In this document: positions 20,503-56,068 of the stretch, piece by piece
Position numbering within the stretch: position 1 is the first letter of the stretch
How the letters are laid out: every line of letters starts with the position of its first letter
DNA from: Candidatus Poribacteria bacterium
GTDB taxonomy: Bacteria > Poribacteria > WGA-4E > PCPOR2b
Assembly (NCBI GenBank): GCA_965218095.1
Contig: OZ244587.1
Coordinates: 2,048,001 to 2,112,000, forward strand
Length of the DNA: 64,000 nucleotides
Direction of reading: 5' to 3'
The notes under the pieces: model-generated
Databases searched by the model: none
Told to the model about the DNA's origin: nothing
The model's input: only the letters and a program-made list of their open reading frames with translations
Program-made: the position numbers and the translations under genes

Positions 20503-21354
20503 GGTTCTGTTGACATTTGAGTATAAGGTTGTGGCATAATAGAAGAATGACGCCAATAACCTTACCTGATGAACAATGGAATAAGATATACCGGTTTCTT
20601 CTAAGCTGTCCCACCATCTATGTTGGCGACGAAGCTGCTACACGCCGCTTCGTCGAAGCCGTCCTGTGGGTGACTCGTAGCAGCGCTCAATGGAGACTTC
20701 TACCAGACACCTATGGCAAATCGAACACCCGCTACAAGCGGTTTGCTCGATGGTGCGACAAAGGTATCTTCACACAGATGCACCACCACTTCGCCTCTGA
20801 CCCCGATATCGAGTCGCTTATTGTGGACAGTACCATCTGCCGCGCTCACCCGTCTGCGGCGGGCGCCTTAAAAAGCTGGCGCCTTAAAAAAAACGGTGGC
20901 ACTGAAAACCAAGCATTAGGTCGCTCTCGGGGCGGTTTCAGTACAAAAATTCACATCACCGTTGACGGACTAGGCAATTCCCTAAGAATTCATCTGACAC
21001 CCGGTCAGAGACATGACATAACTGAGGCGGAAGGGTTGATAATCGGATATAACAGTGAATATGTGATTGGAGACAAGGGGTACGATTCGGACGCTTTTAT
21101 CGCCGTTATTGAGGCGAATGGAGCGATTGCGGTGATACCGCCCAAAAGTCATCGTGTTGACCAAAGAACGTATGACAAACACTTATACAAAGAGAGGCAT
21201 CTACAAAGAGAGACATCGGGTTGAATGTTTCATTAACAAGATAAAATGGTATCGTCGTATCTTCTCTCGGTTTGAGAAGCTAGCTGTCCGTTATTTTGGA
21301 TTTCTCAGCTTTGTCGCCACTCTTATATGGCTCCGTTGAAATGTCAACAGAACC
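20503..21354 (+). mobile_element. IS5-family (IS427-group-like) insertion sequence, copy 1
   Basis: 16-bp perfect TIR GGTTCTGTTGACATTT/AAATGTCAACAGAACC flanked by TA on both sides; transposase motifs VDST, GRSRGGFSTKIH, GDKGYD, YKERHRVECFINKIK; two 16-nt internal duplications. Confidence 0.95.
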
Positions 21355-21737
21355 TAGCGTGAAAAGTTTCAACCGGTTCTATAAGTGATTTCTGGCAGAT
21401 TCTGTCGCGCTATCATTTGGCCAGATCTGTCGAATTTGGAAATTCGTTTACTCATTTTACCATAATCGACAACATCGGACAAGCACGAAACACACATTGG
21501 ATATTGGACAGAAGACGGAAAATCGGGTATACTAAATGGGGTGAAAATTCAGACAAATTTTGCAAGCTATTGAGGATGTATTGATTAAGATGATGGTTTA
21601 CAGTTGAAAAAGTATGAAAAAGGAAACAGAGGCGGCCGGATCGCCCGTCGTTATTCGGCGCGACCCCTGTGTTTTATGCATCTCTGTGATGAAAGAAGTG
21701 TAAACTATTTTGCTCACTAATACATGAGGAGAAATAG

Positions 21738-29831: not shown

Positions 29832-30667
29832 GGTTCTGTTGACATTTCAAGGGAGCCATATAAGAAGGGGGCCATATAAGAGTGGAGACAAAGCTGAGAA
29901 ATCCAAAATAACGGATAGCTAACTTCTCGAACCGAGAGAAGATGCGGCGATACCATTTTATCTTGTTAATGAAACATTCAACCCGATGTCTCTCTTTGTA
30001 CAGATGTTTGTCGTAATCTCTTTGATCCACACGATGACTTTTGGGCGGTATCACCGCAATCGCTCCATTCGCCTCAATAACCGCGATAAAATTGTCGGAG
30101 TCATATCCCTTGTCTCCAATCACATACTCGCTTTTATATCCAAGTATCAACCCTTCTGCTTCCGCTATGTCGTTTCTTTGACCGGGCGTCAGATGTATTC
30201 TTAGGGGATTACCCAGGCCGTCAACTGTGATGTGAATTTTTGTACTGAATCCCCCGCGAGAGCAGCCTAACGCTTGGTTTTCAGTGCCACCCTTTTTTTT
30301 TCGGCACCCGCCGCACACGGGTGCGCGCGAATGATTGTACTGTCCACAATAAGCGACTCGATATCGGGGTCAGAGGCGAAGTGGTGGTGCATCTGTGTGA
30401 AGATACCTTTGTCGCACCACCGAGCAAAACGCTTATAGAGGGTGTTCGATTTACCATAGGTGTCTGGCAGAAGTCCCCATTGAGCACCGCTACGGGTCGC
30501 CCAGAGAATAGCTTCGATAAAGCGGCGTGTTGTCGCTTCGTTGCCAACATAGATGTTGGGACAAGTTAGAAGAAACGAGTATATCTTATTCCATTGGTCA
30601 TCGGGTAAGGTTATTGGCATCATTCTTCTATTATGCCACAACCTTATACTCAAATGTCAACAGAACC
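29832..30667 (-). mobile_element. IS5-family (IS427-group-like) insertion sequence, copy 2; carries the exact protospacer of CRISPR spacer 1
   Basis: Same 16-bp TIRs and TA flanks as copy 1; orfA/orfB overlap at an A9 slippery run (30293-30301); one 16-nt duplication near the 3' end. Confidence 0.95.
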
Positions 30668-52253: not shown

Positions 52254-53516
52254 ATGAACCACGACATTAAAAACCGAGAGCTCGCAGAAGATGGAAAGCG
52301 GCGAATTGATTGGGCGGATCGCTTTATGCCTGTCCTCCGTCTGATTCGCCAGCGGTTTGAGCAGGAACGTCCACTCAATGGCGTGCGGCTGTCCGCGTGT
52401 TTGCATGTCACGACAGAAACGGCGAACCTGGTGCGTGCCTTGAAGGCAGGCGGTGCAGAAGTTGTTTTGTGTGCTTCCAATCCGTTGAGCACCCAGGACG
52501 ACGTTGCGGCGTCTCTTGTCATGCATGAGGGAATCCCCATTTTCGCAATCAAGGGCGAGGACACTGAAACCTACTACCAACATCTCGATGAAGCGGTCAA
52601 TTTTCAACCGATGATGACGATGGATGATGGGGCGGATCTGGTCTCTCGGCTCCACTCTGAAGAGGCGAACCCTGCCTTTGTCGAAAACGTGCTTGCAGGT
52701 ACGGAGGAGACAACAACGGGGGTTATCCGACTCAAGAGTATGGCAGCCGAAGGGGTGCTTCGGTATCCAATCATTGCCGTAAACGACGCCAAGACCAAGC
52801 ACTTCTTTGATAATCGCTACGGTACGGGTCAAAGTACGCTAGACGGTATCATTCGCGCGACCAATTTGTTGATCGCCGGGACGACTATCGCCGTCGCGGG
52901 CTACGGGTGGTGTGGACGCGGTTTTGCCAGTCGGGCGCGGGGGTTGGGGGCGAATGTCATTGTCACGGAAGTCGATCCGTTGAGCGCGTTGGAAGCAGTG
53001 ATGGACGGCTTCCGCGTCTTGCCGATGATTAAAGCTGTCGCCGAAGCCGATCTCGTCGTTACGCTGACGGGCGATATTCATGTGTTGCGCCGCGAGCACT
53101 TTGAAGCGATGAAGGATGGCGCGATTATTTGTAATTCGGGGCATTTCAATGTCGAAATTAACATCCCCGATCTCAAAGATTTAAGCACCGAGGTGAGAAC
53201 CACGCGAGAGTTTGTCGAGGAATATTCCCTCAAGGATGGGCGCAAGCTCTACCTGCTCGGCGAAGGAAGGCTGATAAATCTCGTTTCGGCGGAGGGGCAC
53301 CCCGCTAGTGTCATGGATATGAGTTTCGCTAATCAGGCGCTGTCTGCGGAGTACGTTGTTAAAAACCATCAACAGATGGAAAATCGTGTTTATGACGTGC
53401 CGGAAGAACTGGATGCCTCTATTGCAAAACTCAAATTGCAATCCATCGGCGTTGAAATTGATGAACTGACGGAAGAACAGCGGACTTATCTCAGTTCTTG
53501 GACGATGGGAACATAG
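52254..53516 (+). CDS. ahcY: Adenosylhomocysteinase
   Basis: [39 protein letters not shown]. Confidence 0.98.
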
Positions 53517-53537
53517 CGTAAAACGTAAGATGCCACC

Positions 53538-53726
53538 GTTTCAATCTTATAAGGGTTTGGTTCGGCGTTGCAACTTACCCAGGCCGTCAACTGTGATGTG
53601 AATTTTTGTACTGGTTTCAATCTTATAAGGGTTTGGTTCGGCGTTGCAACCCCGGCAGTTCTAATGACCGTGCGAACAAACTTGTTACCGTTTCAATCTT
53701 ATAAGGGTTTGGTTCGGCGTTGCAAC
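53538..53726 (+). CRISPR. CRISPR mini-array: 3 identical 37-bp repeats and 2 spacers of 39 bp
   Basis: Repeat GTTTCAATCTTATAAGGGTTTGGTTCGGCGTTGCAAC at 53538-53574, 53614-53650, 53690-53726; spacers at 53575-53613 and 53651-53689; strand inferred from the downstream anti-repeat, omegaRNA and iscB. Confidence 0.95.
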
Positions 53727-53833
53727 CCCGGCGCCTCTGGGAGCCTTGACGTTGTTGGGGTTTTCAACTCTTTTTCTGTCAGCCCCTCCCCAATCGGGGA
53801 GGAGGACACGGTTTGGGGGGATAAGGTAAGTCG

Positions 53834-54217
53834 GTGACAACGCCGAAACCCTTATAGGTGTTGCAAAGCCGGGCTTTCCTGTCAGTCTGCGGGGTTTTTA
53901 TTAGCCCTAGGGTTGGCAGGATTAAATCCTTATAAGGTATCCCTTTAAGTGGTAGATTCTAATTACACTCACACCTAGAAACAGCCTTAGCCCGTGAGTT
54001 GAAAGGAATCTGGGCTACGTTGGTATGATTAGCATACCCTGGGGTGCTCCACCAGCCCCAGGCACTATGGCGGCTCTTTAAGAAGGACTTGGGGAGGTTC
54101 GGTCAACCGCATTTCGCACTCACTTTGAGTGAAAGTCACACCAACATTGGCGGGGTGGATCATACCTATTACCCCCCTATCTCCCTCCCGCAAGCGGGGA
54201 GGGGGAAGGGAGGTAAT
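53834..54217 (+). ncRNA. tracrRNA-like anti-repeat joined to an omegaRNA/HEARO-like scaffold (boundaries approximate)
   Basis: CAACGCCG-AAACCCTTATA (53838-53856) is complementary to the repeat with a 4-nt bulge; HEARO-like CTACGTT, stem CCTGGGGTGCTCCACCAGCCCCAGG (54038-54062), AACATTGGCG; pseudoknot pair TCCACC 54048-54053/GGTGGA 54154-54159; terminal hairpin 54168-54217. Confidence 0.85.
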
Positions 54218-54227
54218 GGAGGTCAAT

Positions 54228-55769
54228 ATGTTTGTTCATGTTTTATCAAAATCAGGTCAGCCGTTGATGCCCACGCATCCGGCAAACGCACGTAAACTGC
54301 TTAGAGACGAAAAAGCCCAAGTTGCGAAAACTAAAACGGGCGTGTTTACGATTCAACTCAATTATGAATCTCTAACATATACGCAACCGATAACCGTTGG
54401 AATTGACACCGGCTCAAAATCTGTGCCGATCGCCGCAGAGGGCAACGGCAAAATTTACTACGCCAAGGAGAAACTATTACGGACGGATGTTAAGAATCGA
54501 CTTTCCGATCGGCGTCAACAGAGGAGAATCCGAAGACACCGTAAAACCCGGTATCGGAAACCTCGTTTTTTGAACCGCACCAAAACGAAATGCAGCCGTT
54601 GCGGTGTCAATAATGTGCCGTGTTTATGGACTCTCAAAAAGCGCGAAGAGGGGCAGACAAAGAAGTGGGTTAAGGGTCGGAGAAAATCTTTATGCAGACC
54701 TTGTAAAGGGCATAAAGGAGAGCATAAGCAACCGACTGTGTTAGCCCCTTCAATTAAGAACCGTGCGGAGAGTATTCTAAATGATGTAGAGAGACTGCGG
54801 AAAACCCTGCCCATCTCTAAGGTGGTCGTAGAAACGGCGTCATTCGATACTCAGAAGATGGCAGATCCGAAAATTAAAGGCGTCGAATACCAGCAGGGAA
54901 CCCTCGCCGGGTACGAGTTGAAAGAGTATCTGCTGATAGTGAACAAGCATACATGCGCCTATTGTGGTAAAAAGGATGTCCCCCTTGAAAGGGAACATAT
55001 TTTGCCCAAAGCCAAGGGAGGCAGCGATCGCATTGATAACGCGACGGTCGCTTGTGTGTCTTGCAATGCCGAAAAAGGCGCGAGGACATTAGATCAGTGG
55101 GAAGAGTCACTGCCAGAGGCGGACGCTCGTAGGCAGGGGATACAGCGGGTTCGGAAAAATGCGAATGTCAAAAAAGAATTCCAGTATTCGGCATTGACCC
55201 AATCCTATAAGAATTATTTGATGAAGTCATTGCGCGAACAGTTCCCTGTAATTGAGGAGACTTACGGTTACATGACGAAGTTCTACCGGATTCGACGGAA
55301 GCTTGACAAAACCCAGATAAACGATGCTATGGTGATTGCATCAGAAGGGGAGCCGTTCCAACTACCGGATCGATTTCTTATAGAGAAGCAGATCAAGAAA
55401 CGGCATCCATATCATTCTATCTCGGACCGACATGGTTATAAAATCGTCAAGTATAAGCGCGATCCTGAAAAATATGGTTTCCGCCTATGGGATCGAGTGA
55501 GTTTCAATCATAAGGAATTCGGAGAAGTGGTTGCTTATATCTCTGCGCTGAAAGAGGATGGCTATTTTGAAATGCGCGATATTGAAGGAGGGAAAATTAA
55601 GGGAAAGCGTCCGACCTGTTCACATAAAAAGTTAAAATTGATAGAACCCGCGAGAACAAACTACATAAGGGAATGGCGCGTAACGCGGACTTCGACGAGC
55701 TCAGACTTCGTCGATCCATTGTTAGCCGGTCCTGCCGAACAACTTCACCTGTTCTCGCTTATGTCATAG
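54228..55769 (+). CDS. iscB: CRISPR-associated IscB RNA-guided endonuclease (513 aa)
   Basis: GQPLMPT (PLMP), RuvC-I GIDTG (D60), Arg-rich bridge helix RRQQRRIRRHRKTRYRKPRFLNR, RuvC-II VVETASFD (E202), HNH CAYC..EHILPKAKGGSD..N..ACVSCN, RuvC-III KTQINDA; GGAGGT RBS before ATG 54228. Confidence 0.95.
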   Translation: MFVHVLSKSGQPLMPTHPANARKLLRDEKAQVAKTKTGVFTIQLNYESLTYTQPITVGIDTGSKSVPIAAEGNGKIYYAKEKLLRTDVKNRLSDRRQQRRIRRHRKTRYRKPRFLNRTKTKCSRCGVNNVPCLWTLKKREEGQTKKWVKGRRKSLCRPCKGHKGEHKQPTVLAPSIKNRAESILNDVERLRKTLPISKVVVETASFDTQKMADPKIKGVEYQQGTLAGYELKEYLLIVNKHTCAYCGKKDVPLEREHILPKAKGGSDRIDNATVACVSCNAEKGARTLDQWEESLPEADARRQGIQRVRKNANVKKEFQYSALTQSYKNYLMKSLREQFPVIEETYGYMTKFYRIRRKLDKTQINDAMVIASEGEPFQLPDRFLIEKQIKKRHPYHSISDRHGYKIVKYKRDPEKYGFRLWDRVSFNHKEFGEVVAYISALKEDGYFEMRDIEGGKIKGKRPTCSHKKLKLIEPARTNYIREWRVTRTSTSSDFVDPLLAGPAEQLHLFSLMS

Positions 55770-55831
55770 AGGTATTGCTGGGAAATATTCACATTAAAAC
55801 TATCGGCTCTTAGAGTAAAGGGGCCTGACTT

Positions 55832-56068
55832 ATGAAAAAATCAGATCTCTGGGAAAATATCATTTTGCTTCTGTCGGCGATTTTACTTGTGCCGATCTGG
55901 ATGTTCAAATCCAATCTATCACAGTTATCCGGCGGCATGTTCCAACTGTACCAGATACTACAAGTCGTTTTAGTGATTGTTCTCGTCGTTATGCTGGTTC
56001 GTCGTGTTCGGCGCGTTATGGCTGCGTTGCGCGGGAACAAAAACCGTCAGGGGCCCTTTCTGTTCTAA
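55832..56068 (+). CDS. Small two-TM membrane protein
   Basis: Two hydrophobic helices and a basic tail; co-oriented with its neighbours. Confidence 0.7.
   Translation: MKKSDLWENIILLLSAILLVPIWMFKSNLSQLSGGMFQLYQILQVVLVIVLVVMLVRRVRRVMAALRGNKNRQGPFLF

Follow-up and report, generated by a model that had tools for sequence, protein, structure and literature searches.

CRISPR-associated IscBs are treated as intermediates between the nucleases of transposons and Cas9, and IscB relatives within IS200/IS605 elements act, by means of guides, on the sites at which they are themselves inserted. Among the described CRISPR-associated forms is DelIscB (Altae-Tran et al. 2021, cited in Zhang et al. 2025, PMC12660989), which, as presented there, has upstream repeats, spacers and an anti-repeat, lacks adjacent cas1/cas2 genes, and reads its guide from the repeat-proximal end. 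The same account puts its target-adjacent motif (TAM) at NAC and the effective length of its guide at about 16 nt, and describes a CRISPR-associated IscB as a strong nuclease in E. coli (PMC12660989).

The locus considered here lies in a 64,000-nt stretch of chromosome (the window) and shares with DelIscB the layout of repeats, spacers and anti-repeat upstream of the gene, the lack of adjacent cas1/cas2 and a guide predicted to be read from the repeat-proximal end. The two proteins, likened by description only, differ in length (513 aa here, 457 aa for DelIscB; PMC12660989). Unlike DelIscB, for which the description in that source mentions no natural targets, the locus in the window carries a spacer that matches an insertion sequence (IS) of its own host. 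The genome, a single 6.35-Mb contig, is probably that of a poribacterial sponge symbiont.

Organization of the array, the omega RNA and iscB

The array (53538-53726, plus strand) consists of three identical 37-nt direct repeats, R1 (53538-53574), R2 (53614-53650) and R3 (53690-53726), which recur with a period of 76 nt and enclose two spacers, S1 (53575-53613) and S2 (53651-53689). The spacers are both 39 nt long and unrelated in sequence. S1 is identical to part of an IS subfamily (A, described below); no match to S2 was found in the genome, the INPHARED phages, the PLSDB plasmids or IMG/VR. The genome has no second site for the end of S2, or for the 20 nt that precede R1, which could be an ancestral guide derived from the flank. 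The repeat itself was found nowhere else in the 6.35-Mb genome.

Downstream of the array, on the same strand, a pattern match gives a terminator-like hairpin with a T tract (53738-53776). The anti-repeat (about 53833-53858), a tracr-like 5' part of the omega RNA, begins 105 nt after R3; it is seen as 15-nt inverted repeats (I1/I2, 87%) and extends to about 26 nt in the predicted fold. When 53651-53900 is folded, R3 pairs in cis with the anti-repeat in a long duplex (-99 kcal/mol, z -2.8). The HEARO/omega-RNA scaffold follows at 53897-54165, where the full length of Rfam model RF02033 (positions 1-211) is matched with 75.3 bits (E 4e-15), a score below the model's gathering score of 83. This scaffold lies directly upstream of iscB (P0001, 54228-55769, plus strand). 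The plus-strand order of array, anti-repeat, omega RNA and iscB marks the locus, on its sequence, as a CRISPR-associated IscB of a known, published kind. An earlier note, made from the letters of the window, had likewise proposed a CRISPR-type array serving an IscB, and array, HEARO match, protein domains and repeat:anti-repeat fold all agree with it.

Two further details of the locus were seen. The hexamer CCCGGC occurs after R2 (53651-53656) and again after R3 (53727-53732), so that a repeat finder calls copies 2 and 3 as 43 nt; this may be a 1-in-4096 coincidence, or a first integration may have duplicated 43 nt with a 33-nt spacer. In the fold, the hexamer pairs with GCCGGG at 53869-53874. 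A strong, G+C-rich hairpin (54167-54218), which surfaced only through weak, chance-level matches to microRNA models, separates the HEARO match from the start of iscB and stands beside a GGAGG that precedes the ATG. It might gate the translation of iscB or end the omega RNA.

The 513-aa protein has the architecture of an IscB: an N-terminal PLMP motif (GQPLMPTHP) and RRXRR domain (PF14239, 1.3e-51), a split RuvC, and an inserted HNH (PF14279/PF01844, 2e-12). In alignments with IscBs of solved structure, residues D60, E202, H257 and D366 fall on the GIDPG, E, H and D motifs, and GIDTG, ETASFD, EREHILP and INDAMVIA on the RuvC I/II/III and HNH motifs. All 61 residues that are invariant among 35 homologues are kept. 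The best relatives in the PDB are TbaIscB (6e-49) and OgeuIscB (1e-28); entries named Cas9 reach at best an E value of 5e-17. The predicted function is RNA-guided, TAM-dependent cleavage of DNA.

The IscB locus is an insertion of ~2.3 kb, flanked by ahcY and a gene for a small membrane protein. Its limits are given by contigs from two public runs, X5 and X9, which join 53512 to 55832 through 21 other letters and so represent an empty site; the element is delimited to ~2.3 kb (53513-55831), between ahcY and the membrane-protein open reading frame (ORF) at 55832-56068. These contigs have a depth of 45 in X5 and 2.7 in X9. Because their 38-nt sides are 90% alike, the empty site probably belongs to a related, more abundant organism and not to the same species. 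Besides iscB and its overlaps, no ORF of at least 80 aa was found between ahcY and pfkB, and none of the size of tnpA. The genome contains one iscB, neither inside nor beside any IS. Judged by the ORFs of the locus and this genome-wide count, the element has neither the tnpA nor the several copies of an autonomous IS200/IS605 element. Nor does it have the Cas9-sized effector and adjacent cas1-cas2 of a type II system, the protein being 513 aa; the genome has its cas1/cas2 pairs at 3.42 and 4.78 Mb, 1.3 and 2.7 Mb away from iscB, and each pair belongs to a type I-D locus that also contains cas4.

Spacer S1 and its chromosomal targets

The 39 nt of S1 occur perfectly twice in the window, in the array and at 30209-30247 (0 occurrences expected from 100 shuffles). 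The second site lies in an IS4/IS5-family element of subfamily A (copy 2, 29832-30667, minus strand). A related protospacer at 20939-20977, in an element of subfamily B (copy 1, 20503-21355, plus strand), matches S1 on the minus strand with four mismatches, at spacer positions 3, 6, 9 and 18. The earlier note had reported both matches, as 39/39 and, on the opposite strand, 35/39, and its account of them holds in detail. The four mismatches (ACA/ACC, GGC/GGA, CTG/CTA, GGT/GGC) are synonymous, all falling at third positions in the frame FSTKIHITVDGLGN, and they leave the 21 repeat-proximal nt identical in copy 1. The 3' flanks are AATCC at copy 2 and AAACC at copy 1. A plus-strand crRNA is antisense to the transposase mRNA, since the reverse complement of S1 is the coding sense. 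The identity between S1 and the IS reaches the borders of the repeats and goes no further, not a single flanking base being common to array and IS. S1 is therefore a true spacer-sized insert, with the trace that spacer integration leaves, rather than recombination or an assembly slip.

The target IS is ~0.84 kb long, has 16-nt terminal inverted repeats, and contains two overlapping frames, orfA and orfB, joined at a run of A, an arrangement that presumably places it in the IS427-like subgroup. Its DDE transposase (DUF4096, 8e-19; DDE_Tnp_1, 7e-13), terminal inverted repeats and many copies identify it as a member of the IS4/IS5 family. The chromosome carries 128 copies of at least 700 nt: 49 of subfamily A, which are at least 89% identical to copy 2, and 79 of subfamily B. 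By a crude open-frame test, orfA and orfB are both open in 83 of the 128. The source of S1 is a variant of subfamily A. Diversity within each of the two subfamilies is ~5%. In relatives of the same family and the same order the IS is at most 81% identical, and the expansion is therefore lineage-specific; the sequences point to an old expansion within this lineage and not to a recent burst.

When the whole chromosome is searched, S1 is matched perfectly over its 39 nt at 18 sites, all with the 3' flank AATCCC. Over its last 20 nt, 69 sites are perfect (flanks AATCCC at 41, AAACCG at 27, GAACCG at 1), and over its last 16 nt, 70 sites, which add one flank, AAGCCA. Allowing up to six mismatches over 39 nt gives 131 sites; the same search gives none for S2. 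With perfect matches in the chromosome outside the array, S1 is a self-targeting spacer, and the claim that it is a real one, directed against the genome's own IS4/IS5-family transposase, is borne out by the 18 perfect sites. The original observation was in this respect an understatement, having noted two targets where there are far more genome-wide.

The traces that efficient interference should leave were looked for at these targets and not found. The transposase frames are open in 14 of the 18 perfectly matched copies, again by the crude open-frame test, and no partial or truncated IS copies ending at the predicted cut site were found. In subfamily A, diversity over the flank plus 20 nt is 0.025, compared with a mean of 0.053 (13th percentile); no escape variation was seen in the target region, which varies less than the whole element does. 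The flanks also differ from two published IscB TAMs. None of the 70 sites that are perfect over 16 nt is flanked by NAC, and the IS flanks, from which the earlier note drew a candidate TAM AAWCC, fit neither NAC nor NWRRNA, which are TAMs of other, possibly distant, IscBs. The targets in the two IS subfamilies have the flank AA-CC in common, and it may be a true TAM of the IscB in the window. It is very unlikely that some 70 chromosomal sites are cut efficiently, and a mismatch between flank and TAM would be the simplest reason for a lack of interference.

Strain alleles, related loci and host adaptation genes

The population evidence consists of assembled contigs from public runs. One 5,971-nt contig of X3, from a different study, is ~98% identical to the window and skips from 53534 to 53687. 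The gap is 152 nt, exactly two repeat-spacer units, and its 40 ambiguous letters equal one repeat plus 3 nt. The X3 strain, known here from this one de Bruijn contig, has a locus with one repeat and neither spacer. Confirmation of the array itself, which the earlier note had called for, succeeded in part. An independent 106-nt contig of X5 spans R2-S2-R3 with zero differences, and a contig of X1 breaks off where R1 ends, which is what a branching repeat would cause. The R1-S1-R2 junction was not re-confirmed from public contigs, because S1 exceeds the assemblers' word and recurs in the IS.

Among 21 listed differences between the iscB genes of the window and X3, a subset beyond which there are 53 more differences, 8 are synonymous and 13 non-synonymous. 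Codon 151 (54678) encodes Arg in the window; Gly is found in 33 of 33 homologues and in X3. The X3 protein has non-consensus changes of its own (P169L, D250N, G264E), so that both alleles carry such residues. The counted subset points to relaxed constraint on iscB.

Contigs of X9, a sponge metatranscriptome, cover 53698-54360, which includes the anti-repeat, the omega RNA and the start of iscB. This is compatible with transcription of the omega-RNA region, in a library that may contain DNA and with contigs that give neither strand nor ends. No X9 contigs were seen over 54398-55788 (the body of iscB) or 53221-53434, an absence of cover that is uninformative; since such gaps prove nothing, expression of the omega RNA above iscB is not claimed.

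Homologues of the protein at 50-57% identity are almost all metagenomic. Among close loci with at least 500 nt of upstream DNA, 4 of 19 have an array upstream of iscB (L033, L035, L036 and L050), as does 1 (L023) of the 18 more distant loci for which enough DNA upstream was available. A further array lies upstream of iscB at L008, in a complete genome of the same family (G019). In all five related array loci that were scanned, a HEARO match lies between array and gene. In a quick tree (4 of 43 rows dropped as duplicates, alignments of <300 aa left out), the IscB of the window is the first branch of a 14-row clade with support 98. The next branches are the array-bearing L035, L033 and L036, with 3-11 repeats, and the clade also contains a nested group of 10 rows without arrays; of the rows labelled as having no array, L037, L038, L045, L020, L066 and L068 have little or no upstream DNA. 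Since early branches carry arrays, the association of CRISPR arrays with IscB is, as read from this tree, old in the lineage, and the one-repeat allele of X3 is more simply explained by spacer loss.

The spacers of related arrays do not repeat the behavior of S1. The possibility, raised earlier, that homologous arrays also match self or IS found no support: 0 of 8 IscB-array spacers match their own genome in G019, and 0 of 3 in the L023 metagenome-assembled genome (MAG; G041), which may lack IS copies. Both genomes have cas1 elsewhere. Six 24-nt spacer ends, taken from the 17 spacers of L033, L035 and L036, have no match in IMG/VR.

Two of the related loci have features of their own. At L008 (3031-3595), a 30-nt repeat ends in the same 10 nt as the 37-nt repeat of the window. 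The two IscBs sit in different main branches of the tree, and the shared repeat end may be an adaptation to a similar host Cas1-Cas2. At L023 (3622-3690), in a poribacterial MAG, the last, partial repeat runs straight into the anti-repeat, where the HEARO match starts; the arrangement is that of a natural single-guide RNA with a 19-nt guide. Immediately upstream of this mini-array lies an array with 37-nt repeats of the host type.

The two type I-D arrays of the host, A and B, have 121 and 63 repeats. None of 178 type I-D spacers matches the genome beyond 17 nt; S1 is therefore an outlier, and not the product of a general habit of self-sampling. The repeats of the IscB array and of arrays A and B are all 37 nt long. 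The IscB repeat has 10 of its first 11 nt in common with array A, and the last 10 nt of its reverse complement in common with array B; the 39-nt IscB spacers fall within the host's type I-D range of 33-43 nt. Type I-D Cas1-2 is described as integrating at a leaderless repeat at a low rate (PMC6607411), and in Pyrococcus furiosus active transposase genes are described as hotspots for the uptake of self-spacers (Shiimori et al. 2017, PMC5737086). From the shared repeat length and motifs, the leaderless integration and the uptake hotspots, we infer that S1 was probably captured in trans, by one of the two type I-D Cas1-Cas2(-Cas4) modules of the host, from abundant IS DNA. No similarity between the leader of the IscB array and those of the type I-D arrays was seen by eye. 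The type I-D PAM is GTN, and this motif is absent at the S1 protospacer in both orientations.

The type I-D loci have two peculiarities. In the second, four tandem units of ~100 nt lie between a cas4-cas1 fusion gene and cas2 (G000:C1:4783418-4783719), and each unit opens with the last 11 nt of that array's repeat. In the first, an ORF resembling a REP-associated tyrosine transposase lies between cas1 and cas4 (L085:18025-18789, G000:C1 about 3422024-3422788).

Competing explanations and comparison with known systems

On balance, S1 is probably a recent, strain-variable and tolerated self-targeting spacer drawn from abundant IS DNA, and not a conserved anti-IS device. In such a scheme, one of the two type I-D Cas1-Cas2-Cas4 modules of the host would capture DNA of IS subfamily A in trans, the IS being an abundant and favoured substrate for acquisition. 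A crRNA made of spacer and downstream repeat would pair with the anti-repeat and point IscB at the 18 perfect and ~70 seed-perfect sites. The persistence of these sites, mostly intact and unusually conserved, suggests that interference would be ineffective, most likely because AATCC/AAACC is not the TAM of this enzyme. IscB may also be weak or poorly expressed here, although all of its catalytic motifs are intact.

The earlier note had instead read the locus as an RNA-guided system that represses or damages the IS or uses its copies for homing. Control of the IS by S1, in which the crRNA and IscB bind, nick or cut the element, or the crRNA acts as antisense, and transposition of the 128 copies is lowered, has several points in its favour. 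S1 corresponds to the best-conserved part of the transposase, and one guide therefore covers both subfamilies over its last 16-20 nt (69-70 sites), AA-CC is present in the flanks of both, the sense of the crRNA is antisense to the mRNA, the catalytic motifs are retained, contigs of an RNA library lie over the anti-repeat and omega-RNA region, and copy-number control of transposons by self-targeting has been proposed (as outlined in PMC5737086). However, the ~98%-identical sister strain lacks the spacer, the related arrays lack self-matches, the targets show no escape, truncation or loss, 83 of 128 IS copies still have open frames, iscB has many non-synonymous differences, and efficient cutting would mean double-strand breaks at ~70 sites, which would be hard to survive. 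We consider such control unlikely. A system built for the purpose of repressing the IS or of homing, as first proposed, is a little harder still to accept: S1 is not fixed, related arrays do not share its habit, the targets bear no signature of escape or damage, and iscB looks to be under relaxed constraint, so that neither conservation nor target footprints support it, and the anti-IS reading as a whole is weakly supported. None of the footprints examined would be expected if IscB bound the IS and left it uncut, or if the crRNA acted as antisense. The particular case in which the S1 crRNA, with IscB or alone as antisense, forms a natural RNA-guided transposon brake, with AA-CC as a weak or binding-only and hence non-lethal TAM, is distinctly doubtful; if true, it would be a brake on a transposon built from a transposon-derived nuclease. 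Homing, with IS copies as landing or recombination sites for the IscB element, recalls the way in which IS200/IS605 relatives use their guides, but is very improbable for a single genomic iscB that is neither in nor next to an IS, has no tnpA-sized ORF between ahcY and pfkB, and occupies a position that is an empty site in a related organism.

The remaining explanations concern the array itself. An array newly born from a single omega-RNA 'repeat', as in X3, into which Cas1-Cas2 ectopically integrated S2 and S1, would account for the one-repeat allele of the ~98%-identical strain, the perfect identity of the three repeats and the lack of leader-like sequence, and would draw on leaderless type I-D integration (described in PMC6607411); the last repeat of L023, fused in cis to the anti-repeat, offers a parallel. 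Yet the basal neighbours L035, L033 and L036 all carry arrays, which speaks for an old association, and the X3 allele is accounted for more simply if its repeats recombined and the spacers were lost. With the array of L008/G019 and the tree of relatives taken into account, a newly born array seems improbable. An artefact, in which misassembly of the array produced the identity between S1 and the IS, is favoured by the fact that the R1-S1-R2 junction is beyond the reach of contigs built at k=31. It is hardly to be believed, however, given that S1 fills, to the base, the interval between two perfect 37-nt repeats and keeps to the 76-nt period seen at S2, that the X1 contig ends at R1 as a branching repeat predicts, that an independent contig confirms R2-S2-R3, and that the genome is one 6.35-Mb contig.

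A tolerated, recently acquired self-spacer, the preferred reading, gives the locus a wider interest. A literature search found nothing on natural spacer targets of CRISPR-associated IscBs, and the locus offers a natural IscB spacer whose target is identified, alleles that differ between strains in having or lacking the spacers, and a natural experiment in tolerance at ~70 seed-perfect chromosomal sites, in a host whose only adaptation genes are type I-D, with the same repeat length as the IscB array. Should the flank prove to be a TAM that the enzyme can use, the locus would be one of few in which a guide-RNA nuclease is directed at a transposon living in the same genome. Should it not, the locus would be a clean example of a TAM/PAM mismatch that lets self-spacers persist, and of spacers supplied in trans to an effector without adaptation genes of its own.

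Compared with IscBs of the OgeuIscB type, which are transposon-borne and have a single omega RNA, the locus has the same PLMP/RRXRR, split RuvC and HNH, and a HEARO RNA upstream. It differs in that its guide comes from a repeat-spacer array and an anti-repeat and not from one flank, in that the element is single-copy with no tnpA-sized ORF, and in the weakness of its similarity to solved IscBs (E 1e-28 to 6e-49). RuvC and HNH domains are common to it and type II CRISPR-Cas9, as is a guide in which a spacer-repeat crRNA pairs with an anti-repeat leading into the scaffold; unlike type II, it has a protein of 513 aa, short of the size that goes with a REC lobe, and no cas1, cas2, csn2 or cas4 adjoins it. 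Like self-targeting spacers already known, as these are presented in PMC5737086 and in a review (PMC8616872), S1 perfectly matches its own chromosome and comes from a transposable element. It is set apart from those cases by an effector that is an IscB and not a Cas complex, and by an unusually high number of targets, 18 perfect and ~70 seed-perfect.
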